A DNA stretch of 39,289 nt from a virus (IMGVR_UViG_3300031965_001344:1-39289); one strand, 5' to 3'; shown: positions 9,871 through 38,131, counted from the first letter of the stretch. The notes: generated by a model not told the origin, from the sequence alone. Translations and numbers: made by a program.

Positions 9871-9972
9871 GTGCCTCCTGGCGCGCATCCGCGCGTCGCG
9901 CCGGCAGGCGCGCACCCGCACGTCGTGCTTTGCACGCTTGCGCGTGACGTGCTTTGCACGCTTTCGCGTGAC
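9871..9972 (+). repeat. Array of four micro-repeat units (27+27+24+24 bp)
   Basis: GTGCCTCCTGGCGCGCATCCGCGCGTC, GCGCCGGCAGGCGCGCACCCGCACGTC, GTGCTTTGCACGCTTGCGCGTGAC, GTGCTTTGCACGCTTTCGCGTGAC. Confidence 0.9.
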
Positions 9973-9975
9973 GCA

Positions 9976-10365
9976 TCACCGCCTCTCGTTGAGGATGGGC
10001 AGCGCCGCCGCCTCCATCACCCGGACGCCGCCGAAGAGATCCTCCGTGATCCGCAGCCCGAGCGCCCGGGCGGCCGGCGGCAGCGCCGCGTAGTCGAGCC
10101 CGGTGTGGATCGCGGCCCCGCCGCCGAGGCCCGCCACCACCACGACCCGCCACTGGGTCGCCAGCGCGCAGAACAGGCGCACGGCATCGGCGTTGTCCGG
10201 CCACACCGCGAAGGGCTCCGCCTCCGCGTCGCGGTTCAGCATGGCCGGATCGATCCCGAAGAAGGCGAGATCCTCGGCCAGCGGGTCGTTCTCCGGCTCG
10301 TGCCCGGAGGCGTTCGGTGTCGAGCCGCCGCGCGCCCAGTGGCGGGCGGCGGCCTTCAGTTTTTT
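9976..10365 (-). CDS. DUF1799-like tail chaperone extension (gpT of a G/GT pair), reached by -1 frameshift
   Basis: VWPDN..AVRLF..L.TQWR, GLDY, GVRVME.AAL; begins at the slippery site. Confidence 0.8.
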   Translation of the reverse strand, partial: KKLKAAARHWARGGSTPNASGHEPENDPLAEDLAFFGIDPAMLNRDAEAEPFAVWPDNADAVRLFCALATQWRVVVVAGLGGGAAIHTGLDYAALPPAARALGLRITEDLFGGVRVMEAAALPILNERR

Positions 10366-10735: not shown

Positions 10736-11668
10736 CTACTTGGTGGTGATCTTGAACTCGTCGTCGCCCGCGGCCGAGGGGATCAGCTTGAGCGGGACGT
10801 TCAGCATGACGACGCCCTGGCTGTCCTCGTAGCTCGGCCGGCCGACCTCGCAGGTGGGCCCGTCGAGGACCACGATGTTGCCCGCCACGGTGCCGTGCTG
10901 GCAGCTGAAGGCGACCTTGGTCCGGGCCCGGGCGAGGGCGAAGAAATCCTTGGTCGCCAGGGTCTCCATCTCGATCTTGGCCTGGCCGGTCGCCTCCCGG
11001 CCCGAGACGATGATGCTCTCGGCGCCGATCAGGAACCGCCCCTCCACGGTGTTTCCGAGCTCGAGCGTGAGCTCCTGGAGCACCGCCGAGATCCCGGCGA
11101 GGGTGAAGACCGGCGTGTTGGCGTCGGAGGCCACCAGCGGCGTCTGGTAGGCCGACGTGTCCGGCGCCGGCAGGGCGTCGTCGGTGGCGGCGACGAACAG
11201 CCCCATCATGCGGAAGCGGTAGCGCGGCAGGGCGCTCGGCCCGAGGGTGACTCCGACGGTGCCCCTTGCGCCCAGCAGCGCGTGAAGGATGCCGTCGTAA
11301 TTGACGTAGATGGTGACCGATTCGAAGCTCTCGCTGACCGGGTCGTACTCGACCGGCCCGGTCGTGGGCGTGATGGTCTCGGCGAGCCCGCAGGCGCGCA
11401 GCAGCGGCCCGTAGCCCGGCGGTGTGTCGACGGCGCCGCCGCCGGCGATCTCGACCTCGAAGTCGAGGCCGACATGGGTGTCGACCAGGATGTCGCCCCG
11501 GGCGCCCATGTAGGGCTGGATGGTCTCGCGGTTGACCTCCCCGCCCTCGAGCGGCCGCAGGCTGACGTTGGCGGCCAGGATGGCGTTGGCCGCGCCGGTC
11601 GGCGTCGGGTCCACCCCGTAGTCCGCCTCGATCTTCGCCAGCAGCGTCTTCTTGCGCCAGAATTTCAT
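10736..11668 (-). CDS. Major tail tube protein
   Basis: LLAKIEADYGVDP, P.YGPLLRACG, H.LLGARGT and HGTVAGN motifs of Mu-like siphovirus tube proteins. Confidence 0.88.
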   Translation of the reverse strand: MKFWRKKTLLAKIEADYGVDPTPTGAANAILAANVSLRPLEGGEVNRETIQPYMGARGDILVDTHVGLDFEVEIAGGGAVDTPPGYGPLLRACGLAETITPTTGPVEYDPVSESFESVTIYVNYDGILHALLGARGTVGVTLGPSALPRYRFRMMGLFVAATDDALPAPDTSAYQTPLVASDANTPVFTLAGISAVLQELTLELGNTVEGRFLIGAESIIVSGREATGQAKIEMETLATKDFFALARARTKVAFSCQHGTVAGNIVVLDGPTCEVGRPSYEDSQGVVMLNVPLKLIPSAAGDDEFKITTK

Positions 11669-11886
11669 GACTTGGTCTCCTCATCCGCCGGTCCCTTGCC
11701 GGCGGCCGTGTCCTTGACCTTCGGTGCCGGAGGGGCCGCGGGCGCTTTCTCTCCGGGCGTCGTGCCGCCAGGCGCGCCTCCGCGCGTCGTGCTTTGCACG
11801 CTTGCGCGTGACGGTGCCGGCCGCGTGAACTCCACGCGCCTGGGCTCCTTCCCCTTCTCCACGATGTATCGGCCGCCCTGTCTCAT
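11665..11886 (-). CDS. Small hypothetical protein containing a 51-bp in-frame repeat pair
   Basis: MRQGGRYIVEKG; RBS and ATGA coupling to the tube gene. Confidence 0.65.
   Translation of the reverse strand: MRQGGRYIVEKGKEPRRVEFTRPAPSRASVQSTTRGGAPGGTTPGEKAPAAPPAPKVKDTAAGKGPADEETKS
11762..11812 (+). repeat. Micro-repeat pair (27+24 bp)
   Basis: GTGCCGCCAGGCGCGCCTCCGCGCGTC + GTGCTTTGCACGCTTGCGCGTGAC (second unit identical to 9925-9948). Confidence 0.9.
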
Positions 11887-16801: not shown

Positions 16802-16995
16802 AAACCGCCCGGAGCGCGGCGAATTTCGACGAATTTCGACGCCTCTCGACGCCGGACGCCGCCGGGAGGGGCGAGGACGCCCCGAAACATCGCCGTTAAA
16901 CGGGGTTTTAAACACGAGGACGGGCGTCCCGCCCGCGCCGGTAGGTGGGGCGCTCCCCGGGCGCCGATGCGCCTCCTCGACGCTCCTGGCGCGTC

Positions 16996-17043
16996 GTGCC
17001 CGGCACGCATCCGCATGACGTGCCGGGCACGTATCCGCATGAC
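16996..17043 (+). repeat. Micro-repeat pair (2x24 bp)
   Basis: GTGCCCGGCACGCATCCGCATGAC GTGCCGGGCACGTATCCGCATGAC. Confidence 0.9.
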
Positions 17044-18434: not shown

Positions 18435-18447
18435 GGCTCAGGCCCTC

Positions 18448-18474
18448 TTGCCGCCCGGCGCGCATTCGCACGTC
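18448..18474 (+). repeat. Micro-repeat unit (27 bp) at a gene junction
   Basis: TTGCCGCCCGGCGCGCATTCGCACGTC. Confidence 0.75.
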
Positions 18475-21927: not shown

Positions 21928-23502
21928 TCAGTCCGTGGTTGAGTCCGTGGTGTTGGCGCCGGTCTCGCCGGCGAGGCGGGCCGCGAAGCCCGCGCGGGCC
22001 AGCAGCTCGGTGAGCCGCTCGGGCTCGATGGATGCGACGGCCGCGGCCAGCGCCGCGCGCGCGGCCTCCGGCGTCCTGGCCTTCCCGAGGACCTCGCGCA
22101 GCGGCGCGACGACCTCCTCCATGACGGGCTCCCAGCCGTCGGCCTCCAGGAGCTCGAGGATCAGCGCGTCGACCGAATCGGCTTCCACGGCCCCGGCGGC
22201 CGCCAGCGCGGTGCGATCGCGCGGCGGCGCGCCCGGCGGCACGTCGCGCGGAGGCGCGGCCGGCGAGAGCAGCTCGTCGTCGTCCTTGGGGTCCTCGAGG
22301 CCGAGCTTGCCGCGAATCTCGCGCGCAGACACGCGGAGCCCGAGCGGCACCAGCTTGGCCACCGATTCGGTCAGCAGCGCCATGTCGTCCTGCTCGGGCC
22401 GCGCGATCTCGATGTGCGGGTAGGCCGGGCGAGGGCCCAGGTTGAGGTCGATCAGGGGGCGCACCAGGTCGCGGTTGAGGGTGGCGGCGAGCTGCTTGGC
22501 GTCCGAGCGCTCGATGTCGCCGCGCACCCCGTCGTGGACCTTGCCGGCGGCGTAGCTGCCGGAGTCCCCGACCTCGGTGGTCAGCGTCTGCCCCAGCACC
22601 GCCTTGGAGATCTGCTTGTCGATATACTCCGCCATCTCCTTGTAGAGCTGGCCGGTCTCGCGCGAGGCCCCCGTCTCGACGAACTCGATCATCATGCTTT
22701 CGGGGACGATGGCGGCGGCGTCGGTGCCGATGTTGGCGACCGCCCTGAGCAGGATCGCCTTGTCCTCGTCGGAGGCGGAGGGGTGGAACTTGCCCACGCG
22801 CAGCGGCATGCCGTAGACCTCGATGAAGGCGATCCAGTCCTTGAGGTCGTAGTTCTTGAACAGGTATCCCCAGGCCGCCGCCCGGGCGAGCCCGCCCCGG
22901 ATCGGCAGGCCCGACTTAGCCTTGTGGTGGTGGGTGACGAACTTCCAGGCCGGCAGCGGCTGGGGCCCCTCCTCGGTCCTGAGCCGCAGCGTTCGGCCGT
23001 CGACCCGGTCGAGCTCAAACCAGCGCGGGTCGCGCCACTCGAGGCGGGCGGGCATCCACTGGCGCTCCGACATGTCCCAGACGATCTCGGTCGCCGAGTA
23101 GCCCTTGCCCACGGCGTCGAGGATGTCCACCACCTCGTCCTCGAGGCAGTCGCGGCCGAGCGCCGCCTCGACCAGCTCCGCCGCGCGGGCGTCCTCGGGG
23201 GCGTCGGAGGCCGGGACCACGGTGATGTCGAGCTGGGCCACGGCGCGCTTCCGCGTGCCGATGACCGAGAGGTAATGGAGGTCCTTCTCCTCCATCTCCT
23301 CGGCGAGCTCCAGGTAGCGCAGCGGGTCGCCGTCCTCGGCGCCGCGCAGGATCGAGGCCAGGCGCTGGGGCGTGAGCCCCTGGGCCGGGTGGCCGGTCAT
23401 GACCGAGCGCACGCCGGACAGGGTCGGGGCGGCGATCTCCTTCTTGAGCAGCGAGCGGTCGATCGGCCGGTTGTCGGGGCCGTAGAGCGTCACCTCAGCC
23501 AT
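21928..23502 (-). CDS. Portal protein (Mu gp29, DUF935)
   Basis: LAEEMEEKD.H, LDAVGKGYS, FIEVYGMPLRVGK, ISKAVLGQTLT; TGATG overlap with terL. Confidence 0.95.
   Translation of the reverse strand: MAEVTLYGPDNRPIDRSLLKKEIAAPTLSGVRSVMTGHPAQGLTPQRLASILRGAEDGDPLRYLELAEEMEEKDLHYLSVIGTRKRAVAQLDITVVPASDAPEDARAAELVEAALGRDCLEDEVVDILDAVGKGYSATEIVWDMSERQWMPARLEWRDPRWFELDRVDGRTLRLRTEEGPQPLPAWKFVTHHHKAKSGLPIRGGLARAAAWGYLFKNYDLKDWIAFIEVYGMPLRVGKFHPSASDEDKAILLRAVANIGTDAAAIVPESMMIEFVETGASRETGQLYKEMAEYIDKQISKAVLGQTLTTEVGDSGSYAAGKVHDGVRGDIERSDAKQLAATLNRDLVRPLIDLNLGPRPAYPHIEIARPEQDDMALLTESVAKLVPLGLRVSAREIRGKLGLEDPKDDDELLSPAAPPRDVPPGAPPRDRTALAAAGAVEADSVDALILELLEADGWEPVMEEVVAPLREVLGKARTPEAARAALAAAVASIEPERLTELLARAGFAARLAGETGANTTDSTTD
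22216..22269 (-). repeat. Two degenerate 27-bp micro-repeat units in the portal C-terminal linker
   Basis: Encodes LSPAAPPRD VPPGAPPRD. Confidence 0.65.
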
Positions 23503-25061
23503 CACCACGCCCCCCTGATGCCGTGCCAGCCGCCCGCGCGCCGGTCCTCGCCGGGCGGCGGTCGGAGTGGAGAGCGGCCGCCGGCGGGCGTCTCGTAGCC
23601 GTAGGCGGCGATGTCCATGTCGGCGGCGAAGTGAAGCATGGCGCCGGCGATCGCCGCGTCGCCGTGGCGCTGGCCGCCGCGCTCGGAGCGGGACCGCAGC
23701 CCCTCGGGCACGGAGATCACCCCCTTGTCCCGGCGCAGGCCGCGGAGGTCCTGGCGCAGGTCGCCGTCGCGCGGCAGCTCGATGGTGGCGTCCTCGAAGC
23801 GCGCGACGAAGCCCGGCATGGTCTCGCGGTACCAGGCCTGGGTCGCCATCACCTGGGCGACCCGGGTGGCCCCGAAGGTCTGCATCGCCCGCTCGGCGAT
23901 GGTCGCGCCCAGGCCGCGGGCGTCGACCGCGGCGGCGGCGAACCGCGGCACGCGCCGCAAGACGTGGAACAGGATGGTCTCCTGCTCCTTGAACGGGCAG
24001 TTGCGCAGCTCCACCACGAAGGGCACGCGCAGCACCGCCCCCGCCTTCTGGGCCGGCATGAACACCGTGAGGTCGCCGGTGCGGCCGAAGTCGCCGCCGA
24101 GAAAGCTCAGCAGCCCCGGGTCCATCAGTTCGATCAGCGGGTCCAGCGCGTCATCGATCCAGGCCCGCGCCTCGGCGTCGCGCACCGCGTCGGGCTCGAG
24201 CTCGAAGCCGGCCGGGCAGTGCCACCAGACGACGCGGCCGGCGGCGCTCATGCAGCGGTCGATCACCGCGCGCGACAGCACGACGCCGGCGCCCTGGGAG
24301 GGGACGACGTCGAGCTCCTCGGCCGCGTCCTCGCCGTAGATGCCCCGGATACTGGCGACCCATTCGGCCTCGGCCGCCGGCGTCCAGGCCTTGCCCCGCA
24401 CCAGGCAGATGCGCGCATAAAGCCCCTCGGCCACCGCGTCGTCGAAGGTGACCCGCATGAGGCCGTAATCCCTGCGCCCGGCGCGGATGTCCTCGACCAG
24501 CTCGTTGAACGGGTTGTCGGCCCCCTCGTGGGTCGAGAGCACGATGACCCGGCCGCCCCAGATCAGCATCGCCAGCGCCGCCTTCATCAGCCCCGGCAGG
24601 TCGTCGTGGAACGCCGCCTCGTCGATGATCACCAGGCCCTGGCGCGAGCGCAGGCTGCGCGGCTTGGAGCTGAGCGCCTTGATCTCGAAGCCCGAGGGGA
24701 AGGCGACGCGGAAGGCCAGGATCTCGACCTCCTTCCCGCCCACCGTCTCGCGCCAGACCGTGGCCTCGACCTCGGCGGCGAAGCCGTGCAGGGCCCTGGC
24801 CCAGAACGCCGCGTCGTCGATGAACTCCCGCGCCATGTCGAGGTTGTAGCCGATGTAGAGCGCGTCCATGCCGCCGCCCGCGCGCCCCAAGGCGGCCGTC
24901 TCCACCGCGAGGTAGGCGAAGGTCCAGGACGCGCCGATGCGGCGCGACTTCTCGACCACGGTGACCGGATGGAGAGACGTCGTCTCGAGCATCTCCCGCT
25001 GGTAGGGAAGCAGGACCGGGGGCGTGTCGTCGGGGTGGCGGCCGGGCAGGATCTCCGTCAT
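23502..25061 (-). CDS. terL: Terminase large subunit (Mu gp28-like)
   Basis: LLPYQ, EKSRRIG, VIIDEAAFH, STH.G..NPFN, GGDFGRTGD, HGDAAIA. Confidence 0.95.
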   Translation of the reverse strand: MTEILPGRHPDDTPPVLLPYQREMLETTSLHPVTVVEKSRRIGASWTFAYLAVETAALGRAGGGMDALYIGYNLDMAREFIDDAAFWARALHGFAAEVEATVWRETVGGKEVEILAFRVAFPSGFEIKALSSKPRSLRSRQGLVIIDEAAFHDDLPGLMKAALAMLIWGGRVIVLSTHEGADNPFNELVEDIRAGRRDYGLMRVTFDDAVAEGLYARICLVRGKAWTPAAEAEWVASIRGIYGEDAAEELDVVPSQGAGVVLSRAVIDRCMSAAGRVVWWHCPAGFELEPDAVRDAEARAWIDDALDPLIELMDPGLLSFLGGDFGRTGDLTVFMPAQKAGAVLRVPFVVELRNCPFKEQETILFHVLRRVPRFAAAAVDARGLGATIAERAMQTFGATRVAQVMATQAWYRETMPGFVARFEDATIELPRDGDLRQDLRGLRRDKGVISVPEGLRSRSERGGQRHGDAAIAGAMLHFAADMDIAAYGYETPAGGRSPLRPPPGEDRRAGGWHGIRGAW

Positions 25062-25609: not shown

Positions 25610-25933
25610 TCAGGCCGGCCGGTGGCGCTTGACACCCGGCGCCGAGGCGCGGCCGGCGGCGACCTCCGCGCCCTGGTCGGTGAGCCGCGCCAGGATCGCG
25701 CCGCCGGGCGCGCCGCCCGGCGACATCCGGTCGCCCAGCTCCTCCAGGGCCAGGAGATCCAGGTCCGCGAGCAGCTGGAAATCGGCGCGCACGACGTCGC
25801 GGCGCACGCCGTGGCCGAGGGCGGCCAGGGCCGATGCCATCACGGAATCGTTGATGGCCTCGTCGCCGTCCTGGGCCAGGAGCTGCAGGATCGCGAGGCG
25901 CCTGGCCTCGTCGAGGAGCGTCTTGAGACTCAT
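25610..25933 (-). CDS. Mu gp26-like winged-helix protein
   Basis: RRLAIL.LL, ND, LT..G.EVAAGR...PGVKR..P. Confidence 0.85.
   Translation of the reverse strand: MSLKTLLDEARRLAILQLLAQDGDEAINDSVMASALAALGHGVRRDVVRADFQLLADLDLLALEELGDRMSPGGAPGGAILARLTDQGAEVAAGRASAPGVKRHRPA
25698..25724 (+). repeat. Degenerate 27-bp micro-repeat unit, in frame within the gp26-like gene
   Basis: GCGCCGCCGGGCGCGCCGCCCGGCGAC flanked by ATC on both sides. Confidence 0.55.
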
Positions 25934-27890: not shown

Positions 27891-28385
27891 CCGCCGTTCC
27901 TGTTCCGCCGTCCTGATGCGCGCCTTCCGGCGCGGCGTGCCGATGCGCGCCTCGAGGCGCGACGGCGCGAGGGTAGCGGGGCCGGCGTCCTCTGGGCAGC
28001 GGCCCCGCGGTTCGGGGAGCCGGCCGGCCCTCCTCGCGGCGCGGCGCACGCGCCGGACGGTCTTGATATGGCAGTTGAGCTCCGCCTGGATCTCGCGGTT
28101 GTCGAGCCCCTCGGCGATAAGGGCCTCGATGCGCGCCCGGGCGTCGCGGTGGTCCCCGGCGGGCCCGAGCGGCACCGTGACGTCGCCGGGACCCAGCGCC
28201 GCGGCGACCGCGCGCGCCGTCTCGAGGCCGAGCGCCCGGGCCAGGGGATGGCCGCCCCGCACCTCGCGCGGGATGTAGATCTCCCGCCCGCCGAAATGCT
28301 TCGCCAGCGCCCGCGCCGCGTCCTCGCCCACCTCCTCGGCGAGCCGCCCGAGCAGGCCGGGGAATTCCGGCCGCCGGCCGCTCAT
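27450..28385 (-). CDS. Mor/C-like late transcription activator, reading in frame into the endolysin
   Basis: L....GEDAA..L..HFGGREIYIP (Mor signature) and C-terminal HTH (NREIQAELNCHIKTVRRV); no stop before the hydrolase domain. Confidence 0.8.
   Translation of the reverse strand: MSGRRPEFPGLLGRLAEEVGEDAARALAKHFGGREIYIPREVRGGHPLARALGLETARAVAAALGPGDVTVPLGPAGDHRDARARIEALIAEGLDNREIQAELNCHIKTVRRVRRAARRAGRLPEPRGRCPEDAGPATLAPSRLEARIGTPRRKARIRTAEQERRMVPVSQHDIHMMASTIVAEARGEPWIGKVAVGWVIRNRHANPGWWSRERDTVPDDTIAAVCVDAWQFSGLNSCDPNLRYAMIMPPDHPEYLECLAAALAVILDKEQDPTEGAGHYHARSMRQPPAWAAGLRPCFETPGHLFFNDVR
27970..28018 (-). promoter_or_regulatory. Putative Mor/C-activated late promoter of the lysis/packaging operon
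   Basis: TCCCCGAACCGCGGGGCCGCTGCCCA-N17-TACCCT, matching 16753-16801. Confidence 0.75.
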
Positions 28386-28900
28386 TCCGCCTCGCTCCCC
28401 GCATGGCGCGGAGGCGCGCCTGACGGCACGACACGTGGCGGGCACGCGTTCCCATGACGCCGGATCATGGCCTTGAGCGCCTCGACGACCTTGTTGGCGG
28501 CGCCGGGCGGCAGCCAGCGCAGGGTGGCGATCCCGGTGACGCGGCGGCAGAAGCGGTCGATCCCCGCGTCGCACGCCCACCAGGGGTCGCGCAGCGCGCC
28601 GTTCTCCCCGAGCCAGCGCCAGGCGGCACGGATCAGCGCCTGCTGGTCGCTCTCGCCGTCCCGCCGGTGGGCGGGGATCGCCGCCTTGACCGCGCGCCAG
28701 GGGTCGTTCACCCCCTGGAACGCCCCGTCCCGCTTCATCGCCTCGATCACCCGCCGGCGCTGCGGCCCGTCGAGATCCGCCGCCGACTCCCTGCCGGTCA
28801 CCGCCAGGAGAAGCGCCCGGTAGGTGCCGTCGTCGAGCCCCAGCGCCTTCTTGCCGACGTGGATCTTCGCGAGCTCGCGGTTGCGCGGCGCATCTGTCAT
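28382..28900 (-). CDS. gemA: GemA / Mu gp16 (DUF1018) regulatory protein
   Basis: LAKIHVGKKALGLDDGTYRALL...TG..S..DL and KVVEALKAM..R. Confidence 0.9.
   Translation of the reverse strand: MTDAPRNRELAKIHVGKKALGLDDGTYRALLLAVTGRESAADLDGPQRRRVIEAMKRDGAFQGVNDPWRAVKAAIPAHRRDGESDQQALIRAAWRWLGENGALRDPWWACDAGIDRFCRRVTGIATLRWLPPGAANKVVEALKAMIRRHGNACPPRVVPSGAPPRHAGSEAE
28403..28458. repeat. Divergently oriented micro-repeat units (27 bp minus, 24 bp plus) at the gemA 3' end
   Basis: Minus GTGCCGTCAGGCGCGCCTCCGCGCCAT; plus GTGGCGGGCACGCGTTCCCATGAC. Confidence 0.7.
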
Positions 28901-29184: not shown

Positions 29185-29549
29185 TCCCGCACGTCACGCG
29201 GATGCGTGCTCCGCACGTCACGCGGATGCGTGCTCCGCACGTCACGCGGATGCGTGCTCCGCACGTCACGCGGATGCGTGCTCCGCACGACGATCAGGTC
29301 GGGGATGCAGTCGTCGCACAGCGCGAAGATCGGCGAGTGGGGGCCTTCGTCCCACAGCGCCACCCCCCTGACGGGGCCGAGGGCGACGACGTGGAGGACC
29401 GCGTCCCGGATTGTGAAGGAGGGCGTCTCGCGGGCGACCGGCGCGTCGCAGTAGGAGCACCGGAGGCGCGGCCCGAGCGGCCTCAAGCGGTGCTCGGGCA
29501 CCGTGAGGCCGAGGACGGGCGTTTGTCTGGGCCTTGCGTCGGGGATCAT
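29181..29549 (-). CDS. C4 zinc-finger protein (ClpX ZnF-like) with a repeat-derived tail
   Basis: LRCSYC...LCDDCI; C-terminal (VRSTHPRD)x4; ATGA overlaps. Confidence 0.7.
   Translation of the reverse strand: MIPDARPRQTPVLGLTVPEHRLRPLGPRLRCSYCDAPVARETPSFTIRDAVLHVVALGPVRGVALWDEGPHSPIFALCDDCIPDLIVVRSTHPRDVRSTHPRDVRSTHPRDVRSTHPRDVRE
29193..29288 (-). repeat. Four perfect tandem 24-bp micro-repeat units
   Basis: (GTGCGGAGCACGCATCCGCGTGAC)x4 on the minus strand. Confidence 0.97.
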
Positions 29550-29812: not shown

Positions 29813-30919
29813 TCACGCCCGCTCCCGGCAGTCGGGGCACGCCGTCTCGTCCACCCTGTCCGTTGCGAACACGGCGCCGCAGGCGCAGCGCCGGTTGACC
29901 TTCTTCGGGAGACGCTCCGCGGCCTGCGACCCGTCCCCAAACATGGCCCGCGGCGGCACATAGGGGCCGGGCGCCGGCACCGCCGGCACCCGGTCTAGAA
30001 TCCTTTTCGAGTCCTTGACCGCCGCGGGAGGGGTGCCATCCGCCGCGAGGCGCCCCAGGCCGGCCAGCACCAGCCGCCCGAAGGCGACGAACGTCACCGG
30101 CGCTCGGCCCTGGCCCACCATCTCGCGCGCGCGGTCGAGGCGTTTGGCGTTGGTCTCCTTCCCGAGCCAGGCCGCGACCTCCTGGTCCGTAAGGCCTGCG
30201 CCCTTCGGGTGGCGGAGCGCCCACGACACGCCCTTGACCGCCTCCGAGCGGATCTCCCCCGTTCGGTCGCCGGCGGCGTCGGCGACGAGCGTCAGCACGC
30301 GGACGGCGTGGTCCTCCGAGGTCCTGAGCAGCGCGCGGACGGCGCCGAGCGCCAGGGTCTGGCGCGGGGCCATCTGCCGCGCCTGGATCGTGTGGTAGGG
30401 GATGGTGACGCGGGCCGCGTCGCACACCCGCTTGACCGCGAGCGCCGAAGGCTCGCCGGCGAGGAGCTCGGCCTTGAAGCGCGCGTACTGGTCGAGGTTG
30501 ATGCGGTCGCGGTTGATGGCGACGAAGGCGGTGGCGGCGGCCGCGGCGCTCTCCATGGCGACGATCCAGCACGGCACCCGGGAGATCTCCGGGATCGTCC
30601 TGGCCGCCGCCCAGCGGTGCTGCCCGTCGAGGATCTCATAGCGGCCGGTCCCGTCCGCGGCCGGCGCGTCCTGCGGATGCGCGCCTGCGGCCGCGTCCTG
30701 AGGATGCGCGCCTGCCGGCGCGACCACGATGGGGGCGAAGGCGGCCCAGGAGAAGCGCTCGCCGATGCGCGCGACCAGGCTCCGGCCGCTTCGCGTGTTC
30801 AATTCCCGCTGGTAGTCGCGGTTCACCGTGAGGCTGTCGATGGGGAGCCAGTCGAAGCGGGGCTCGGGCCCGAGATCCCGCGCGGCGCGAGGGCGCGTCT
30901 GACGGGTCTGGGCCGTCAT
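29813..30919 (-). CDS. ParB N-terminal-domain protein with C-terminal Cys4 ribbon
   Basis: L.V...YQR, PIVV, YEILDGQHRWAAA, F..IN..R; CAC..CPDC. Confidence 0.85.
   Translation of the reverse strand: MTAQTRQTRPRAARDLGPEPRFDWLPIDSLTVNRDYQRELNTRSGRSLVARIGERFSWAAFAPIVVAPAGAHPQDAAAGAHPQDAPAADGTGRYEILDGQHRWAAARTIPEISRVPCWIVAMESAAAAATAFVAINRDRINLDQYARFKAELLAGEPSALAVKRVCDAARVTIPYHTIQARQMAPRQTLALGAVRALLRTSEDHAVRVLTLVADAAGDRTGEIRSEAVKGVSWALRHPKGAGLTDQEVAAWLGKETNAKRLDRAREMVGQGRAPVTFVAFGRLVLAGLGRLAADGTPPAAVKDSKRILDRVPAVPAPGPYVPPRAMFGDGSQAAERLPKKVNRRCACGAVFATDRVDETACPDCRERA
30668..30721 (-). repeat. Two 27-bp micro-repeat units in frame inside the ParB domain
   Basis: Encodes APAGAHPQD AAAGAHPQD between PIVV and YEILDGQHR. 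Confidence 0.85.
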
Positions 30920-31269
30920 GCCGTTCCTCCGGCGCGCGGATGCGCGCCTGACGGCACGTCGCGCGGATGCGCGCCTTGCGGCGCGACCACCCGGCCGAGA
31001 TAGGCCCGGCCCGCCTCCGTTACCTCGATCTCCGGCTCGGGCAGGGGCGGCGGCGGCCAGCAGAGGTGGACGCTCCGCGCCGCAAAGCGCCGGCGGGGCG
31101 TGATCCATCCCCGCTCCTCGAGCTTCGCGAGCAGCCACATGACCTGGCGCATCGACATGTCCATCTCGCGCGCCATCTCGACGATCAAGGGCGGGCGGCC
31201 GCCGGCGCGAAACAACTCGGCGATGACGCGCGCCAGGTCCGCCTGCGTCGGCGTGAGGCTCATGGGCAT
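30916..31269 (-). CDS. LexA/MarR-like winged-helix protein
   Basis: LTPTQ, PP...EMAREM, LL.KLEERGWI, I.VTEAGRAYL. Confidence 0.75.
   Translation of the reverse strand: MPMSLTPTQADLARVIAELFRAGGRPPLIVEMAREMDMSMRQVMWLLAKLEERGWITPRRRFAARSVHLCWPPPPLPEPEIEVTEAGRAYLGRVVAPQGAHPRDVPSGAHPRAGGTA
30931..30984 (-). repeat. Two 27-bp micro-repeat units
   Basis: GCGCCGCAAGGCGCGCATCCGCGCGAC GTGCCGTCAGGCGCGCATCCGCGCGCC. Confidence 0.9.
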
Positions 31270-32312
31270 GGGTCGTCTCCCTTTTCGTCGCGCGGATGCG
31301 CGCCCGACGGCGCGACGGCGGCCGGCGCCTCGTTGCCCCAGGCGTCCCAGCCGGGGCGGCGGGTGCGGGCGAAGAGCTCGAGATAGGGGCCGGGGAAAAG
31401 GCGCTCGACGCGCCGGGCGACCTCCTCCGGCTTCTCCGAATGCCGCCCGCGCGGCGCCATGACGACCTGCTGGACGCCGGCATCGAGGCGCTTCGGGCAG
31501 CCCCGCCGCGCATAGATGCAGAACTCCGCCTGCTCGCGTGTCGAATAGCCGAGGCCGCCCGGCGCCGGCGCTCCGCCCGCGTTTGTCTTGACCCAGACGA
31601 AGCCGATCTTGACGTACTCGAAGCCCCAGGCCCGCACGATCTCCCGCGCCGCGTCATACATTTCGTCGAGGAACCACAGGAAGAGCGCGCAGTCATCGGC
31701 GGCGAGATCCGCCACGGGGCGGTCGTCCGGTTCAAGCGCGGCGATCTCCCCGACGTTCATCACCGGATAATGATTGTCGGCCGACCTGTCCCGCCCGCGA
31801 GCCGACCATGTGCGGCAGAGCCAGGGTGGATCCGCCACAATCGCGCGGTACTGGCCGGGGAGCGGGGCCTCGAAGATCGTCGCCGCGTACGTCTGCATCC
31901 GATGATTGGCGAGCGCCCGGCGAAGATCGCTCCGGTGCATGCCGGGGTTGATGGTCCCGTCATCGGCCAGCCGCCCAAGGCAGTCATCGCCGAGGGTCGT
32001 CAGCTGATGGAGCGTGACCCACTCCGGCGGCAGCATCTCCCGACGGGCGAGCACTCTAAGCCGTTGATCCGTTGCGATTTTCATCAGCCGGCCCGCCGTG
32101 GATTGTCCAAACGGCAGGCGCTCGCAGAAGCGCCCCCATTCCCCCTTGGGCACGATCTCGCGGGCCCGCAACAGGGCGTCGCCGGCCGCGAGGATGGAAT
32201 CGACGGCGTAGCGCCAGTGCCGCCAGACGGCGTCGATGCAGTCCGCCGCGGACGTCAGATTCGGCGCTGGCGCCGAAAGTACCAAAATGGAACTATTTCC
32301 CATCGCGCTCAT
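31260..32312 (-). CDS. MT-A70 family adenine methyltransferase with N-terminal DUF3102-like domain
   Basis: IVADPPW, HYPVM, CALFLW, WGF.Y...FVWVK, GLGYSTR..AE, HSEKP, YLELFAR..RPGWDAWGNE. Confidence 0.92.
   Translation of the reverse strand: MSAMGNSSILVLSAPAPNLTSAADCIDAVWRHWRYAVDSILAAGDALLRAREIVPKGEWGRFCERLPFGQSTAGRLMKIATDQRLRVLARREMLPPEWVTLHQLTTLGDDCLGRLADDGTINPGMHRSDLRRALANHRMQTYAATIFEAPLPGQYRAIVADPPWLCRTWSARGRDRSADNHYPVMNVGEIAALEPDDRPVADLAADDCALFLWFLDEMYDAAREIVRAWGFEYVKIGFVWVKTNAGGAPAPGGLGYSTREQAEFCIYARRGCPKRLDAGVQQVVMAPRGRHSEKPEEVARRVERLFPGPYLELFARTRRPGWDAWGNEAPAAVAPSGAHPRDEKGDDPCP
31287..31313 (-). repeat. 27-bp micro-repeat unit at the methyltransferase C-terminus
   Basis: GCGCCGTCGGGCGCGCATCCGCGCGAC. 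Confidence 0.88.
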
Positions 32313-32836
32313 GCCGCCTCCCCGTCCTTCGTGTTTTCATGAGCCGCCAGCAGCGCGTCGACCAGCCTGTCGATCTCGCCGTCGGCGGCGCTCACCAGCA
32401 CCTGGTCGCTGTCCTCCGCCACGGCGACCCCGATCTTCTTGAGCTCGGCGCCGGTGAGGCGCGCCAGCGCCGGCTTGACGGGCGTTTCCGTGGTCCTCAC
32501 CAGCTCGTCGAAGCGTCCGGGAAGGTGCCGGCGGATGAGGGCGACGACGGCGCCCGCGTCCTCGAAGGAGATCTTCCCCTTGGCCTTCATCCAGCCGACC
32601 CGGATGCCGTGCAGGATGCGGGTGCGCGGGCGCTTGAACAGCGCCTTGTCCGTCTCCACGGCCGCTTCGAGCTCGAGTCGCGCATCGGCGGCCTGGGCCG
32701 CGGCGCGCTTGATCCCGGGGAGGTGCCGGCGCTTGATCGCCGCGGTCTCGTCCTCGAGGCCGCCCACGCGGCCGGCGAGCGTCCCCCGCGCCTCGGCGTA
32801 GCCCCTGGCCAGCCGCTCGATCTTCTCCATGCTCAT
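32309..32836 (-). CDS. gam: Host-nuclease inhibitor Gam-like protein
   Basis: Coiled coil, LFKRPRT..LHGIRVGW.K.KG, E.P.K.AL..L...ELKKIGV. Confidence 0.75.
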   Translation of the reverse strand: MSMEKIERLARGYAEARGTLAGRVGGLEDETAAIKRRHLPGIKRAAAQAADARLELEAAVETDKALFKRPRTRILHGIRVGWMKAKGKISFEDAGAVVALIRRHLPGRFDELVRTTETPVKPALARLTGAELKKIGVAVAEDSDQVLVSAADGEIDRLVDALLAAHENTKDGEAA

Positions 32837-33396
32837 TGTCCTTGGTCCTCCTCCTTGGTTGTGGCGGCGGCGCCTTCCGTTGCGCCTGCCGCCCCCTCCG
32901 TTGCATCGGTCTCCTCCCACCCGGCCTCCGCGAGGACCCGGCGCAGCGCCACGATGACCGCCTCCGCCGCCCGGCCGGGGCAGCGGATCGCCGCGGCGCG
33001 GGCGAGGCGGGCGACCTCCCGCTGCAGCGCCGTCATCGTGCCGTCCACGGCGTCCTCGAGGGCCTGGACGGAGTCGAATTCCTCGGCGATGCGGCGCTCC
33101 AGCGCGTCGAGGCGGGCCTCTAGCTCGGGCTCGCGCGCGAGCCTGCAGGCGAGCGAATCGCGGGCGTGCATGACGGTGGTGTGGTCGCGGCCGCCGAGCT
33201 CGCGGCCGATGACGGTGGTCGAGTGGGCGGTCAGTTTCAGCGCCAGATACACCGCCGCCTGGCGCGCCCTGTGGGCGTCGTCGGTGCGGCGCCGGGATTC
33301 GATGGTCATCACCGAGATGCCGAACTCGCGGGCGACGAACTGCTTGATCAGCGCCATCGTCGGGCGGCCCTTGATGCTGAACGACAGGTCCCTCAT
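32833..33396 (-). CDS. DnaA C-terminal (domain IV) HTH protein
   Basis: I...VA..FGI....I.S.RR.....ARQ.A.YL...LT..S...IGRELGGRDHTTVMHA. Confidence 0.9.
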   Translation of the reverse strand: MRDLSFSIKGRPTMALIKQFVAREFGISVMTIESRRRTDDAHRARQAAVYLALKLTAHSTTVIGRELGGRDHTTVMHARDSLACRLAREPELEARLDALERRIAEEFDSVQALEDAVDGTMTALQREVARLARAAAIRCPGRAAEAVIVALRRVLAEAGWEETDATEGAAGATEGAAATTKEEDQGQ

Positions 33397-33896
33397 CGCG
33401 GCTCCCCCGCCCGCCTGCCCGGCGGCCGTCCGGCCGGCGCCGGGCCCACCCCCACGCCGGTTTCGAGCACGCATGTCGTGCCCGCGGAATCGGTGACGGC
33501 GAAGGTCCAGGTCCGGCGACCGCCCGGGCTGACGAAGAGCTCGGCCCTGTGCCCGGCCATGGTCAGCCCCTCCAGCGCCGGCCGCTCGCCCCAGTCCTCG
33601 AGCAGGACCGCCGCGACGTGGGGCCGCGGGCCGCAGACGCGGCCCACGGTGCCCTGGCCCCAGACGGGCGCCAGTGTGGCGGCGAGGCCGAGGAGCACGA
33701 GGGCGGCGGCGGCGGCGTAGAGCCCGGCGAGCGTCCGGCCGCGCAGCACGCGGCGGAAGACGTCCCGGCCGGGGGCCGCGCTCACCGTCCCGCCCAGCGC
33801 CAGCCGCTCGGCGCGGGGGAGCCGCTCGCGCTGCCGCGAGGCACGCATTCGCATGTCGTGCCGAGCACGCATTCGCATGACGTGCCGCGCGCTCAC
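33393..33896 (-). CDS. Hypothetical membrane/exported protein (start uncertain; alternative 33785)
   Basis: Hydrophobic segment then CGPR..L...WGE..G...ELF..P..RTWT......C....G. Confidence 0.65.
   Translation of the reverse strand: MSARHVMRMRARHDMRMRASRQRERLPRAERLALGGTVSAAPGRDVFRRVLRGRTLAGLYAAAAALVLLGLAATLAPVWGQGTVGRVCGPRPHVAAVLLEDWGERPALEGLTMAGHRAELFVSPGGRRTWTFAVTDSAGTTCVLETGVGVGPAPAGRPPGRRAGEPR
33834..33881 (+). repeat. Two 24-bp micro-repeat units
   Basis: CCGCGAGGCACGCATTCGCATGTC GTGCCGAGCACGCATTCGCATGAC. Confidence 0.85.
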
Positions 33897-34153
33897 GCCG
33901 CCGGCCCCGGCGTGTCGACACCACGCCATCCCGCGCGCCCGGCGCGCGGGAACAGCACGATCTTGCCGTCGGCAAGGTCGTGGATCGTCAGCCGGGCCGC
34001 GGGCGCGACCTCGTGCGCCTCGATCTCCGCCACGCCGTCGGCGGCGGCGCGCAGCGCCCGCAGGCAGGCGTAGAAGGCGTCCTCGGTGAGGGTGCCGGCG
34101 CGGTAGCGCTCGTCGATGGTCCAGACGGTGTTCTTGATCGTCTCACTCAGCAT
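33893..34153 (-). CDS. Hypothetical early protein
   Basis: AAAGGAG RBS; GKIVLFPR C-terminal motif. Confidence 0.7.
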   Translation of the reverse strand: MLSETIKNTVWTIDERYRAGTLTEDAFYACLRALRAAADGVAEIEAHEVAPAARLTIHDLADGKIVLFPRAGRAGWRGVDTPGPAA

Positions 34154-34559
34154 GGGTGGCTCCTTTCCGGCCCGGACGCTCGCGGATCAGCGAATGCGGG
34201 CAGCCCGCGCGGCAGGCGCGGTAGAGCTCGACGCGGAAGGGGTTCGTCGAGACGGCGTCGAGCTTCACGGCCTGGTGGCGCAGGCAGGCGTGGCGCGGGA
34301 TTTCCTCGAGCACGGGGCACGTCACCGTCTTGCCCAGGTATCTGCCGCGCACGAGCTGCTCGATCCTGGCGAGGTCGCCGGGATAGCGGTTGCGGATCAC
34401 CTGGCTGATCACCGCGGGGGAATAACCGAGCTCGTCGGCCACCCGGCTCTGGGAGCCGCCGCGGTCGCATTCCGCGGCGAGCGCCGCGATCCAGTCGGGC
34501 GGCGCCCCGTCCCACGCCTGATTGGCGGCGAAGATGTTGACGGTCCCAGCGCCCGTCAT
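34143..34559 (-). CDS. XRE-like HTH protein with Cys-rich C-terminus
   Basis: PDWI..LA..C...SQ..VA.ELGYSPAVISQV...Y.GD, V.CPVL.EI. Confidence 0.82.
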   Translation of the reverse strand: MTGAGTVNIFAANQAWDGAPPDWIAALAAECDRGGSQSRVADELGYSPAVISQVIRNRYPGDLARIEQLVRGRYLGKTVTCPVLEEIPRHACLRHQAVKLDAVSTNPFRVELYRACRAGCPHSLIRERPGRKGATHAE

Positions 34560-35161
34560 GTCGCCGCCTCGGCGCCGCCAGGCGCGCATCGGCGCGACAC
34601 CATCGACCGGCTGTTGGGATCGAACACGCCGCCGCCCTTGATCGTCGGGGCGAGCGGGCCGAGGTCGCGGACGAGGAGGTAGCGGTTGAAGCCCGGGGAC
34701 GTCGGCGCCGCGCCCGGCTCGCGGCGCGCCAGCCTGACGACGACGCCCTTCGCCTCGAGGGCGCGGAGATACTGATACGCGCCACCCTCCGGATCGCGCT
34801 CGTTCCCGGTCGCGGCCACGGTCACCAGGTCCGGGATCGTCGCCTTGGTCATGGACCTGAGCGCCTTCCACACGCGCCCGCGGAAGGTCGATTGCTTCGG
34901 CCGGCGGTAGACGCCGGTGAGCGGGCCGTTCGGCCCGGAGGTGAGGCGCCGCCCCGCCTCGCGGCCGGCGACCCCGGCGGGCGTCAGCCGGAAGCATCCC
35001 GGCCGCACCCGCTCGATGACGTGACGGTCGACGAGGCGCGCGCAGCTCCGCGACACATCCTTCCTGTTGCGCCCGACCGTTCGGGCGAGCGCCGCGATGT
35101 CCATGCAGCGGCCCTCGCCAGGGAGCGCCCGCAGGATCGTGTTGATGAGATCCGCGCTCAT
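34556..35161 (-). CDS. Double winged-helix protein typical downstream of MuB
   Basis: LARTVG, GCFRLT.AG, R.RVWKALR....TIPDL, Y.LVRDLGPLAP. Confidence 0.78.
   Translation of the reverse strand: MSADLINTILRALPGEGRCMDIAALARTVGRNRKDVSRSCARLVDRHVIERVRPGCFRLTPAGVAGREAGRRLTSGPNGPLTGVYRRPKQSTFRGRVWKALRSMTKATIPDLVTVAATGNERDPEGGAYQYLRALEAKGVVVRLARREPGAAPTSPGFNRYLLVRDLGPLAPTIKGGGVFDPNSRSMVSRRCAPGGAEAAT
34572..34598 (+). repeat. 27-bp micro-repeat unit near a gene 3' end
   Basis: GCGCCGCCAGGCGCGCATCGGCGCGAC. Confidence 0.85.
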
Positions 35162-35922
35162 TTAGCCTGTTCCTCCGGCGGGCCGAACGGCAGGAGGTTG
35201 CCCCCGGCCTTGGCCCCGCGGCGCCAGTAGCCGCAGAGCCACTTGCCGCGCAGGTCCTCGACGGTTACCGGGCGGTCCTTCACGCGCCGCGCCACGACGT
35301 CGATCTCCGCCACGGCCTGCATGACGTCGCGGATGTAGCCTCCGGACTGCCGCTGCGCCTCGGCGACGAGCTCGTCGGCCACCTTCCCCTCCACCAGCTG
35401 GTCGCAACACAGGCGCACGTCATCGATGTCGAGGGGCTGGAACTCGGCGACGCCGCCGATGCGGCTCCAGATCTGGCGGTGGCGCTGCAGCTTCTCGCGC
35501 GTGCCCTCGCGGCCGACCAGGATCAGCGGCACCTCGACCAGGTCCACCAGCGACCGGAGGATGTCGAGCGGGCGGGCCTCGTCGGTGAGCGCGTGCTCGA
35601 CCTCGTCGACGACGATCGGGCGGCGGTCGACCCCGAGCGCGCCCACCGCCTGCCCGAACAGCAGCTTGGCGGAGCCCTTGGGCGCGAGGCCGAGCTCGCG
35701 CACCAGGTCCGAGAGCACCCATGTGGCCGAGGCGGTGGCCTTGCAGGTCAGCATGATCGCGTCGTTCTGGACCATCCACCAGCGCGCGGTGCGCGACTTG
35801 CCGAGCCCGGCCTCCCCGGCGACGACGACGATCTGCTTTTCCCGGGCCCCGCGCCGGTCGAGCCGCGCGATGGCGTCGTTCATGCGGCCGACGTTGGCGA
35901 CCTGGACGAATCTGTTATGCAT
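35158..35922 (-). CDS. Transposition AAA+ ATPase (MuB-like)
   Basis: Walker A GEAGLGKS, Walker B IVVDE, LR..VD..P.ILVG, Q..SRI; follows the transposase. Confidence 0.92.
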   Translation of the reverse strand: MHNRFVQVANVGRMNDAIARLDRRGAREKQIVVVAGEAGLGKSRTARWWMVQNDAIMLTCKATASATWVLSDLVRELGLAPKGSAKLLFGQAVGALGVDRRPIVVDEVEHALTDEARPLDILRSLVDLVEVPLILVGREGTREKLQRHRQIWSRIGGVAEFQPLDIDDVRLCCDQLVEGKVADELVAEAQRQSGGYIRDVMQAVAEIDVVARRVKDRPVTVEDLRGKWLCGYWRRGAKAGGNLLPFGPPEEQAK

Positions 35923-38131
35923 TTTTCAGCCTCTCCCACTGATTGACGTTCGCCATGTCCCGCGCGAGCCGGCGCAGGCGGTCGTTTTCCGCCTTGGCGG
36001 CGTCGCGCCGCCGCGCGGCTTTCCGCTCCATCTCGACGCCGGCGGTCCGCGCCGCGGCAAGCTCCTCGGGCGACGGCTCGTAGGGCCGCTCCTTCGGGGC
36101 CAGCGCCCGGGCGGCCTCGTCGAGCGCCGGCGTCTCGTGCGCCTCGCCGGGGCGCGGCAAAGCCACCACCCGGCCCGCCTCGTCGCGGGCGGCCGCGAGC
36201 ACCTCGTCGATGATGGTGTGGGCCTTGATGCGGCGGGCGGTCTTGCGGAGATCCTTCACGCCCTCGCGGACCGTGGCCCGTTGCAGCTCGCGCGCCCGGG
36301 CGGCGATCTGCCGGCGGTCGGCCCCGGTGCGCTCCGGCGCCACCGCCTCGCAGACGAATTCCGAGCTGTCCGCGTCGAACACCCAGATGCGCCCCATGTC
36401 GCAGGGATCGAGGCGCACGTGCACCTTGCGTCCTTCGAGCGCGCCCAGTTCCGGCGCGATGAAGTGGGTCGCCTCCACGGCGATGCCCTTCTTGCCGACG
36501 GTGCGGATGCCGTGGGTGCCCGGCGCCTCGGCCAGCAGGACGTCCAGCGCCCGGGCGTCGCCGATCATGCGCGGCCGCCCGGCCCACGCGGCGGCGGCCT
36601 CGAAGGGACTGCGCCCGCCGAGCCCGCCGTGGCGCTCGCGCTCGTAGACCCCGGACACCCAGGCGTCGCAGGCGGCCTGCAGGTCCGCCGCCTCCATGTC
36701 GGCCGCGCCGGTGAAGAGCTCCGCGCCGCCGAAGCGCTCGGCGAAGGAGCGCCGCGCCTCGATCGACGCGCGGTCGGCGACGGAATGGCCGAGGTAGCCG
36801 GGGAGCTCCTCGAACAGCCCGTGGGTGATGGTGCCGATGAAGCGCTCGACGAAGGGCTTGGCCTCGGGCGTGAAGGGCGGGCAGAGATCGTGCCCGATGC
36901 CGAGGCCGGCGAGCGCCCGGTCCATGTGGGCGGATTTGTAATCCTTGCCCTGGTCGGTCTTGACGATCTCCGGCACACCCCAGGCGAGGCAGCAGCGGCG
37001 CAGCAGCGAGACGATGGCCGCCGAGCGCGAGGACCGGCTGATCAGCACGGCGGCGCGCCGGGAGTAGACGTCGATGCAGGCGATCAGCGCGTGCCGGCCG
37101 CCGGGGAGCATGACCTCGCCCGAGGTGGAGTCCATCTCCCAGAGCTGGTTGAGGCGGGTGACACCCTCGTCGGCGCGGCCGAAGGCCACGCGCTTGCGGT
37201 TCTTCCAGGCGTCGGGATTGGAATGGGCGAGAAAGACGCTCTCGTTGGCGGCCTTCCAGGCGGCCATGAAGCGCTGCACGGTGCGGTAGGAGGGCAGCCG
37301 GGCGTCGCCGTCCCTGAATCGCGCCCTGAGCCCCCGGATCACATGCTTCGCCGAGGCGTGCGGACGGGCGGCGATCATGCCGGTGATGAAGTCGTACAAA
37401 TCGGCGTTGGACTCGATGACGCCCCGGCCCTTGTTGGGGGCGCCCGCCTTCCGGGCCAGCGCCGGGGCGCCCCCTGCGCGGAGCCGGCGGCGCCAGCCCA
37501 GCACGGTCGGGCCGGACACGGTGGGGATGAGGGCCCGGGTCTCCCGGGCGACGTCGCGCGAATGCGCGCCACCCGGCACGACGATGGCCCCCTCCCGGTA
37601 GCGATCTGCGAACGCGTCGGCGCCGGGCACGTCGGGCAGCCGCGCCTCGGCGACGAATGCCTCGAAGGCGGCGAGGATGTCGAGCTTGGCGGCGGCCTCG
37701 GCTGCGAGGCGGTCGTCGCGGGCCACCGCGAGGGCCCGGGCCGCGGCCGCGCCAGCGCCGGGACGGAGGTGGGCGGGGTCGGGCGCTGCGGCCCCCCGGG
37801 AGGAGAGGGCCGAGCCAGCCGGCACCCCACCCCGCCCCCGGTCCGCGAGGACCGGTTTCGCATGAGCAGTTTCCTTACCCCCGTCACGGGCGTCGTCCCC
37901 GCCCTCGTCCTGAGCCTGTCGAAGGACGCGGGACGCCTCGGCGCCGCGCGCCGCCAGCGCGGCCCGGGCCGCGGGCGGCAGGGAGGAGACGTGGTATTCG
38001 CGACCACCACCGCGGCCCTTCCTCGGTCGCGACAGCCAAGCCTCGCGCTGCGCCAAACGCGTGATGGACCGAACGGTCCCCGGAAGGCCCGGCACCCCCG
38101 CGAGCTCGCCCGCCGCGTACCACGCCGTCAT
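35915..38131 (-). CDS. Mu-type DDE transposase (MuA-like)
   Basis: N-terminal Mu DNA-binding domain (WY...ELAG.PGLP..GRGGGREYHVSSLP); DDE residues in WEMDST, KTDQGKDY, KPFVERF; ATGA start at 38131. Confidence 0.95.
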   Translation of the reverse strand: MTAWYAAGELAGVPGLPGTVRSITRLAQREAWLSRPRKGRGGGREYHVSSLPPAARAALAARGAEASRVLRQAQDEGGDDARDGGKETAHAKPVLADRGRGGVPAGSALSSRGAAAPDPAHLRPGAGAAAARALAVARDDRLAAEAAAKLDILAAFEAFVAEARLPDVPGADAFADRYREGAIVVPGGAHSRDVARETRALIPTVSGPTVLGWRRRLRAGGAPALARKAGAPNKGRGVIESNADLYDFITGMIAARPHASAKHVIRGLRARFRDGDARLPSYRTVQRFMAAWKAANESVFLAHSNPDAWKNRKRVAFGRADEGVTRLNQLWEMDSTSGEVMLPGGRHALIACIDVYSRRAAVLISRSSRSAAIVSLLRRCCLAWGVPEIVKTDQGKDYKSAHMDRALAGLGIGHDLCPPFTPEAKPFVERFIGTITHGLFEELPGYLGHSVADRASIEARRSFAERFGGAELFTGAADMEAADLQAACDAWVSGVYERERHGGLGGRSPFEAAAAWAGRPRMIGDARALDVLLAEAPGTHGIRTVGKKGIAVEATHFIAPELGALEGRKVHVRLDPCDMGRIWVFDADSSEFVCEAVAPERTGADRRQIAARARELQRATVREGVKDLRKTARRIKAHTIIDEVLAAARDEAGRVVALPRPGEAHETPALDEAARALAPKERPYEPSPEELAAARTAGVEMERKAARRRDAAKAENDRLRRLARDMANVNQWERLKNA
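37553..37579 (-). repeat. 27-bp micro-repeat unit in frame in the transposase
   Basis: GTGCCGGGTGGCGCGCATTCGCGCGAC (VPGGAHSRD), absent from the paralogue at 1-525. Confidence 0.88.
37906..37928 (+). repeat. Bacterial REP-like palindrome in the transposase linker
   Basis: CGTCCTGAGCCTGTCGAAGGACG, resembling the CTTCGACAGGCTCAG intergenic repeat family. Confidence 0.55.

Follow-up and report, generated by a model that had tools for sequence, protein, structure and literature searches.

Mobile repeats of fewer than 30 bases pose the question of how they move. Closest in kind to the short cassette that we describe here, from the viral record IMGVR_UViG_3300031965_001344, are the small dispersed repeats (SDRs) of cyanobacteria and those repetitive extragenic palindromic (REP) and Rickettsia palindromic (RPE) elements that lie within genes. 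SDR1–8 of the Nostocaceae, which Elhai et al. are said to have described in 2008, are reportedly 21–27 nt long and dispersed, with empty sites in relatives; they are also said to nest in other repeats and beside their own copies, with compensatory changes that preserve structure, and reportedly were proposed to spread via an RNA intermediate and a reverse transcriptase (RT). To our knowledge, no enzyme is known for SDRs, and we know of no ~3-base target replacement or phage invasion reported for them. SDR1–8 are cited in passages of PMC5861425, PMC2884548 and PMC3116915, the first of which gives them as not found outside the Nostocaceae. Di Nocera et al. 2013 (PMC3733652) present CGTC- and GTAG-tagged REPs as short hairpins of Alphaproteobacteria, some of them intragenic. 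Their paper mentions GTAG-14 variants of Bradyrhizobium whose long loops reach 27 bp, and GTAG-23 elements of Thermomicrobium that have entered small palindromes centred on 3–4 bases. RPE-1, in the portions of PMC10969869 and PMC3733652 that treat it, is ~150 bp long and has a conserved encoded peptide.

We analysed the entire record, 39,289 bases with 72% G+C (hereafter the window), which represents a Mu-like transposable phage. The repeated units that it carries are, we conclude with high confidence, copies of a mobile cassette without genes, 27–30 bases long with inverted GTC...GAC ends, that replaces about three bases of its target for a net gain of 24–27; it is likely to be among the smallest mobile DNA elements. 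A first-pass annotation, made from the window alone, had listed 27 units at 14 loci. All 14 loci carry units as listed (the 33834 array actually starts at 33831), and a two-unit array at 27907–27960 had been missed, so that 15 loci hold 29 units in all. Twelve are 24 bases long and 17 are 27, in both orientations as claimed, with 14 on the plus and 15 on the minus strand. A scan by position weights picked up 26 of these units. The units at 22216, 25698 and 27907 are degenerate and were retained by eye, and two borderline 25-base matches (14590 and 23235) were excluded as chance because 20 third-order Markov shuffles yield 0–2 matches at that score.

The units are more frequent than chance allows. 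A 17-base core, allowing two mismatches or fewer, matched 27 times in the window, whereas 100 dinucleotide shuffles averaged 1.31 matches and never exceeded 5. Within the 42 called genes there were 19 matches, against a mean of 0.7 when codon order was shuffled (60 rounds) and a mean of 5.0 (maximum 9) when the proteins were kept and synonymous codons redrawn (60 rounds), and the DNA is therefore conserved beyond the peptide. Twenty of the units lie in reading frames, six between genes and three at gene boundaries, and at least 20 of the 29 are translated in frame; the encoded peptides are not conserved, the units being read in either orientation and in more than one frame. Arrays run head to tail. 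The triplet 5′ of the 16 phage arrays is GTC in nine, ATC in two, CTC in two and GCG, TCG and CAC in one each; an NTC triplet thus stands to the left of 13 of the 16, and also of an insert in a related terminase allele (L001). The density in the phage is ~20 times that in the richest bacterial genome (18 core matches in 39 kb versus 107 in 4.3 Mb, with slightly different patterns).

The phage units are insertions, not ancestral peptides. Orthologues hold empty sites and do not conserve the peptides, as expected of the ultra-small mobile insert that had been suggested. A single contig that is 99.4% identical over 8.6 kb (L004) lacks both 16996 units and has in their place a 5-bp hairpin with a 3-base loop, the net difference being 49 bases. 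An 87%-identical terminase allele (L001; proteins P0040–P0042) carries one 27-base unit, exactly nine additional amino acids, where the window is empty. Both units, together with two further residues, are absent from a ParB allele (P0045) that is 82% identical overall and identical around the site, and GemA alleles P0029–P0031 terminate before the two units. Alignment of orthologues of TnpA, ParB, gp26 and portal, which had been put forward as a check, gave gaps in the first three; the portal linker was unalignable. For TnpA, 37 alignments spanned the site, and among the 13 non-self alignments shown the nine-residue gap was clean in five (relatives of ~40% identity), slightly shifted in four and unclear in four. 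Relatives of gp26 have gaps of 9–11 residues at the 25698 unit.

Unit number and order also vary. The 27907 array has two units in the window and three in L005/L083 and P0055/P0056, and the 29193 array has four, three, two or one among alleles in protein collections, part of which assembly collapse may explain. An allele of the helix-turn-helix (HTH) gene (P0048; 79% identical) has the two 30931 unit types in reversed order. Contig assemblies of 8 of the 23 matching DNA sequencing runs broke near several arrays and yielded no usable joints between empty and filled alleles. Separately, in the related phage lineage of P0048 and P0012 we observed two loci whose units both end in PND, not PRD, which hints at copying between loci.

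The family is not private to the phage: the cassette belongs to bacterial chromosomes, where it nests in hairpins of the REP type. It occurs in 1–100 copies in scattered bacterial genomes, mostly labelled Alphaproteobacteria. True copies were found in metagenome-assembled genomes (MAGs) labelled Rhodospirillales, Rhizobiaceae, Acetobacteraceae and Magnetospirillaceae, and in one genome that is labelled Acidobacteria but clusters within that class. When species genomes were scanned, the matches listed for 15 of the 64 parts of the collection gave at least 122 loci, many of them chance coding matches; many matches on genome contigs proved to be chance matches to a recurring coding motif of the VPxGAHPHDV type and were excluded. 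In five chosen genomes the core matched 107, 51, 12, 28 and 8 times, compared with 7, 2, 1, 2 and 3 times for a reversed control. Relatives of the richest genome (G001) gave 68, 52, 13 and 8 full-cassette matches, with 8 of 41 genomes positive, and one of these relatives, a single-contig genome, holds 13 cassettes. In a second family (that of G408) 10 of 31 genomes were positive, and across the class 11 of 401, only one of which had more than three copies.

Host and phage forms overlap. G009 has counterparts of the phage 24-mers whose second loop is TTGC or TTTC, and G438 has a 29-base form near the longer phage type; the true 30-base form was seen in quantity in this phage lineage alone. In one species a DinG-like host gene contains an in-frame pair with a period of 24, like the phage arrays, and in its relative a single unit. 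A second Mu-like prophage has one in-frame cassette in GemA, the sole match in its 2.7-Mb genome. We found no burst of cassettes in ~3.0 Mb of loci around relatives of the portal, TnpA, tail-tube and methyltransferase genes. Pattern scans of viral contigs gave multi-copy matches in this lineage only, plus single cassettes in hairpins (L539 and L547) and chance matches; INPHARED gave no cassette match and Rfam no family at gathering score. A further Mu-like portal region, 60% identical to the portal of the window and without a clear cassette, was seen in G408 (L524, G408:C9).

Host copies define the ends of the cassette. The unit is 27 bases long at 79 of 96 host sites and 28 bases at the other 17, with inverted GTC...GAC ends. 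About 20 invariant bases, constant across genomes of different families, flank two hypervariable loops (located from alignment gaps). Stem variants covary, GCAC pairing with GCGT at 44 sites and GCGC with GCGC at 11, and in the main host variants an outer helix of 7 bp closes with standard pairs or, on one strand, G–T pairs. Host cassettes sit in at least five unrelated families of hairpin repeats. In one G001 family of 42 rows, 19 are filled (nine forward, ten reverse) and 19 are empty with AGC or AAC loops; in two CGTC-type families the cassette stands in for TGC, TAC, TTC or TCC loops or for TTG or CTTG loops, four bases being lost from CTTG. Other loop modules in L313, L574 and L308 share the right-hand core of the cassette or carry the cassette in their own loops, as nested modules inside REPs.

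Of 96 distinct host flank pairs, 20 had an empty copy with exactly the same flanks in the DNA that was fetched. Three bases were lost in 12 of these, four in three, five in four, and none in one, which is a tandem. Neither GTC nor GAC stood at any of the 20 empty sites, and the GTC in the lead is therefore, as a rule, the end of the element itself and not its target; the element is GTC plus the unit as first annotated, and the net gain is therefore 24 when three bases are lost. There is no target duplication at host sites, and both orientations occur. Seventy-seven of 107 host flank pairs start exactly at GTC, with unrelated flanks, and 57 of the 107 close a stem of at least four pairs, compared with 17% at random (some chance coding matches are included). 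The earlier idea that a length divisible by three makes the units tolerable fits the phage, where the net gain is 24 or 27 and none of the 29 units is a 28-base form, but not the 28-mers in hosts.

The exact ends across unrelated flanks, together with bases that are invariant across families, argue for a protein that recognises the folded cassette, and the loss of the loop, the use of both orientations and the preference for hairpins argue for a single-stranded DNA substrate. We regard it as an evenly balanced possibility that a host-encoded enzyme cuts and joins the folded cassette on single-stranded DNA. The cassette would then be a non-autonomous micro-element, pasted into single-stranded DNA by an enzyme that recognises its fold. 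The prophage may have acquired it from a cassette-bearing alphaproteobacterial host and accumulated it during replication; arrays would grow through insertion at or beside an existing end, plus slippage; and 28-base forms would have been purged from phage genes as frame-breaking, with net gains of 24 or 27 retained. A more specific proposal, which we consider unlikely as a whole, is an undescribed 'loop exchange', in which a structure-specific enzyme would remove a three-base single-stranded loop and seal in a 27-base hairpin cassette, with no homology and no duplication. The phage lineage would then be a hot spot and a shuttle of the cassette between bacteria, and would have evolved a 30-base form of its own that preserves the frame and inserts outside hairpins, the transposase gene included.

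Several results weigh against replacement by a dedicated enzyme. No enzyme was linked to the cassette in searches for RAYT (REP-associated tyrosine transposase), a class of RT or a nuclease, in genomes that are mostly incomplete. Y1/RAYT genes were present in 2 of the 31 genomes of the G408 family, both cassette-free, and in none of five G001 relatives, including the single-contig genome with 13 cassettes; the RAYT of G002 is flanked by sequences of its own that lack the cassette. No small GIY-YIG or DUF559 gene turned up in G001, the richest genome and an incomplete MAG, and clustering of the neighbourhoods of 81 host sites gave no recurrent gene family. Filled REPs may amplify as wholes, in which case many host copies would descend from few events, and host counts therefore overstate independent insertions. 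In the phage, flanks that close a hairpin are found at only 1 of the 16 arrays (16996), so the hairpin-loop rule does not describe phage sites, and L004, the sole empty phage site at the DNA level, has a net difference of 49 that neither replacement of 3 bases nor simple insertion explains cleanly. The empty ParB and GemA sites resemble cassette ends before they are filled, and the right flanks of 3 of the 16 arrays start with GYGC (p ~0.008); homology-driven copying therefore suits the phage sites, where short homology to the ends, plus slippage, would seem to contribute.

Further searches gave no consistent partner among the RT, RAYT and GIY-YIG genes that the first-pass annotation had named as candidates to look for in hosts. 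As it had noted for the phage, there was no RT, RAYT or integrase gene, and there was likewise no GIY-YIG, HUH or IS110 gene, among the 52 and 30 phage open reading frames (ORFs) scanned. No insertion sequence (IS) with matching ends lay beside the 81 host sites, a search confined to those sites with no genome-wide search for IS ends made. Two Ssn-like GIY-YIG genes in G004 adjoin a filled CGTC REP, and genomes that lack the cassette also commonly have small GIY-YIG genes. Ssn nucleases, according to passages of PMC11893778, act on single-stranded CGTC hairpins and cleave without depending on loop identity, so REPs might remain substrates once filled; the same passages have Ssn cutting upstream of the hairpin and do not show it joining DNA.

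The main rival to a host enzyme is template switching without any enzyme of its own. A stalled polymerase or recombination intermediate would switch between hairpins or look-alike ends through 2–9 bases of microhomology, copy the cassette and return, with slippage and gene conversion building and shuffling arrays. Such switching certainly contributes to array growth; as the full account it is possible, if on balance doubtful. It accounts for the loss of the loop, both orientations, the hypervariable tri-loops and the other loop modules in the same REPs, for the lack of a linked enzyme, for the end-like empty ParB and GemA sites and the NTC triplets to the left of 14 of 17 inserts in the phage lineage, and for a slippage scar in G008 and the swapped order in P0048. 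However, the boundaries do not creep, as the 77 of 107 host flank pairs that start exactly at GTC in unrelated flanks attest, and a purely structural process would not keep ~20 bases invariant across families while the loops vary.

An RNA intermediate, in which the cassette would be transcribed within a REP-bearing RNA and rewritten by a reverse transcriptase, is improbable. The tolerance of G–T pairs on one strand suits it, as does the presence of RT in 4 of 10 cassette-positive and 0 of 21 cassette-negative genomes of the 31-genome family (Fisher p=0.007; one of three families tested) and in both well-assembled cassette-rich genomes. These RTs nevertheless fall into at least three unrelated groups (mostly 22–36% identity) with no cassette in the 3–10 kb fetched around them, the richest genomes (G001, G002, G009 and G004, most genomes being incomplete) have no RT match or one marginal fragment, and both orientations occur within one repeat family. 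Two of the RTs, L616 (G429:C178) and L617 (G408:C63), are stand-alone proteins of ~430–450 aa that share 50% identity with each other and less than 32% with the others.

Less probable again is the junction model of the first-pass annotation, by which a 24- or 27-base unit is added 3′ of a GTC-like target without loss, in the manner of IS200/IS605, its end recreating the target. Arrays with periods of 24 and 27, the valine retained before the ParB insert and two host copies that start with a native TTC loop all suit it, and ATC, CTC and TTC junctions in the phage fit a native NTC. The model is largely refuted for host sites: there the GTC belongs to the element and about three target bases are lost, a GTC or GAC empty loop was never seen in three host families or the 20 matched empty sites, CTTG loops lose four bases, a host tandem repeats GTC with a period of 27, and no Y1 transposase tracks the cassette. 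Selection of the units as stoperator-like binding sites for a phage repressor, the alternative offered with that model, is highly improbable despite their density along one phage genome and the several units at gene junctions, because units fall on both strands of a genome with its genes on one strand, reading frames contain 20 of the 29, the inserts change the length of the sequence as they arise, and identical cassettes occur in hosts without a related prophage.

The placement of the cassette in the window is given in the table below. The window is likely to be a prophage, judging from a 133,878-base metagenome contig (which contains locus L251) that matches 25918–39289 identically and terminates at the same point. 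The genes, which all lie on the minus strand, comprise MuA, MuB, Gam, GemA, Mor, terminase and portal genes and those for head and tail.

Table 1. Cassette units, one empty site and the transposase gene in the window (sizes in bases).
Feature	Position	Strand	Context
Leading triplet and four units (27, 27, 24, 24)	9868..9972	+	Tail chaperone-like gene to tape-measure start codon; start codon (9867–9870) overlaps left end
Two units (27, 24), reverse orientation, in frame	11759..11812	+	Within 73-aa ORF 11665–11886; 24-mer identical to that at 9925
Two units (24, 24)	16993..17043	+	Intergenic; absent from L004
One unit (27)	18445..18474	+	Overlaps stop codon (18473–18475) of gene 18473–18790
Two degenerate units (24, 27), in frame	22216..22269	-	Variable linker of portal protein; relatives unalignable there
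Empty site	23562..23567	-	Near C terminus of terminase large subunit; filled in L001, P0040–P0042
One degenerate unit (27), in frame	25695..25724	+	gp26-like gene 25610–25933; 9–11-aa gap in relatives
Two units (27, 27)	27907..27963	-	Open frame linking Mor-like activator and endolysin; absent from first-pass list
Two units in opposite orientations (27 on -, 24 on +)	28403..28458	.	Extend GemA C terminus
Four identical units (24), in frame	29193..29291	-	C terminus of gene 29181–29549
Two units (27, 27), in frame	30668..30724	-	Inside ParB-like N-terminal domain
Two units (27, 27)	30931..30987	-	C terminus of HTH gene 30916–31269
One unit (27)	31287..31316	-	C terminus of MT-A70 methyltransferase; diverged in allele P0012
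Two units (27, 24)	33828..33881	+	5′ end of ORF 33393–33929, or just upstream of its true start
One unit (27), reverse orientation	34569..34598	+	C terminus of regulator 34556–35161
One unit (27), in frame	37553..37582	-	MuA-type transposase
MuA-type DDE transposase	35915..38131	-	Sole recombinase found in window; hosts one unit; action on units not demonstrated

Other features of the phage lineage were recorded alongside. The Mor-like late activator and the endolysin (a cell-wall hydrolase) share one stop-free frame at 27450–28385 on the minus strand, bridged by the 27907 array; this fusion frame is retained in the 3-unit allele, and a separate endolysin call (P0058) is also present. A 174-aa ORF at 1–525 on the plus strand resembles the N-terminal part of TnpA, has no unit at the position of the TnpA unit and is unchanged on 15 contigs. 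L001:1-1903 (window 23498–25367) is a mosaic in which the 87%-identical terminase module is fused to a 99.98%-identical portal region, and P0040 is a further recombinant of two terminase alleles. Past the right end of the window, L082:9493-9997 and L252:1-506 are near-identical copies with differing repressor/promoter regions, suggestive of immunity variants. A region of 69/135-bp tandem repeats (19110–20203) lies inside a 680-aa ORF (18816–20858) that has no family match.

For the study of very small mobile repeats the cassette offers several handles: exact ends, a loss of about three bases, no duplication, insertion in either orientation, many empty and filled pairs, 13 copies in a genome assembled as a single contig, and a phage population that is still polymorphic. 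Through it, functioning phage proteins (transposase, terminase, ParB and portal) gain 8–9 residues, and start and stop codons are altered. Were an enzyme responsible, its single-strand joining activity would be a new one.

We found no description of the cassette in a search of full-text literature that left subscription papers and figures outside, so that absence from print is not established. On the features tested, it does not belong with CGTC REPs, REPtrons, MITEs (miniature transposable elements with inverted repeats), RPE-1 or stoperators. Unlike a CGTC REP, it has no CGTC foot, no 8–9-bp stem starting with AT, no 4–5-base loop and no CCA tail; it replaces such loops. Twenty of 29 phage copies lie in frames, with head-to-tail arrays, whereas CGTC REPs are mostly extragenic inverted dimers. 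Within CGTC REPs and other hairpins the cassette rides as a passenger, and in the phage it lies outside REPs altogether. A relative may exist among the REP loop variants of Di Nocera et al.; the core was not found in four supplementary files of PMC3733652 (figures not covered), and a module that shares the right-hand core sits in a Bradyrhizobium REP (L313). The CGTC hairpin, which is the Ssn substrate, is the commonest host of the cassette, but unlike Ssn/SRM repeats the cassette also occurs in non-CGTC repeats and in a genome without a small GIY-YIG match. In contrast to REP/RAYT systems (REPtrons), no RAYT gene is flanked by the cassette in the same genome.

With MITEs, which a portion of PMC10969869 gives as 50–500 bp long with target duplications, and with IS elements that target REPs, the cassette shares inverted ends and the character of a non-autonomous or REP-loop-targeting insert; unlike MITEs, its inverted ends are seven imperfect bases, and 3–5 target bases are lost and none duplicated. 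Like Rickettsia palindromic elements, it is an in-frame palindromic insert in unrelated working genes, but at 27–30 bases and read in both orientations and several frames it is unlike RPE-1. Stoperators are oriented with transcription and intergenic in the sections of PMC9283540 that describe them; the cassette lies 14 times on the plus and 15 times on the minus strand, and mostly in coding sequence. The likeness to SDRs as described is in size (27–30 bases, net 24–27), dispersal (29 copies in the phage and up to ~100 per genome), empty sites in close relatives, nesting both in other repeats and in or beside its own copies, and stem changes that compensate one another; the difference is in the phylum of the hosts, here labelled Rhodospirillales, Rhizobiaceae, Acetobacteraceae and other Alphaproteobacteria. 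As far as our search extends the cassette is undescribed, and set against other very small mobile repeats its new features are the replacement rule and the burst in a phage.

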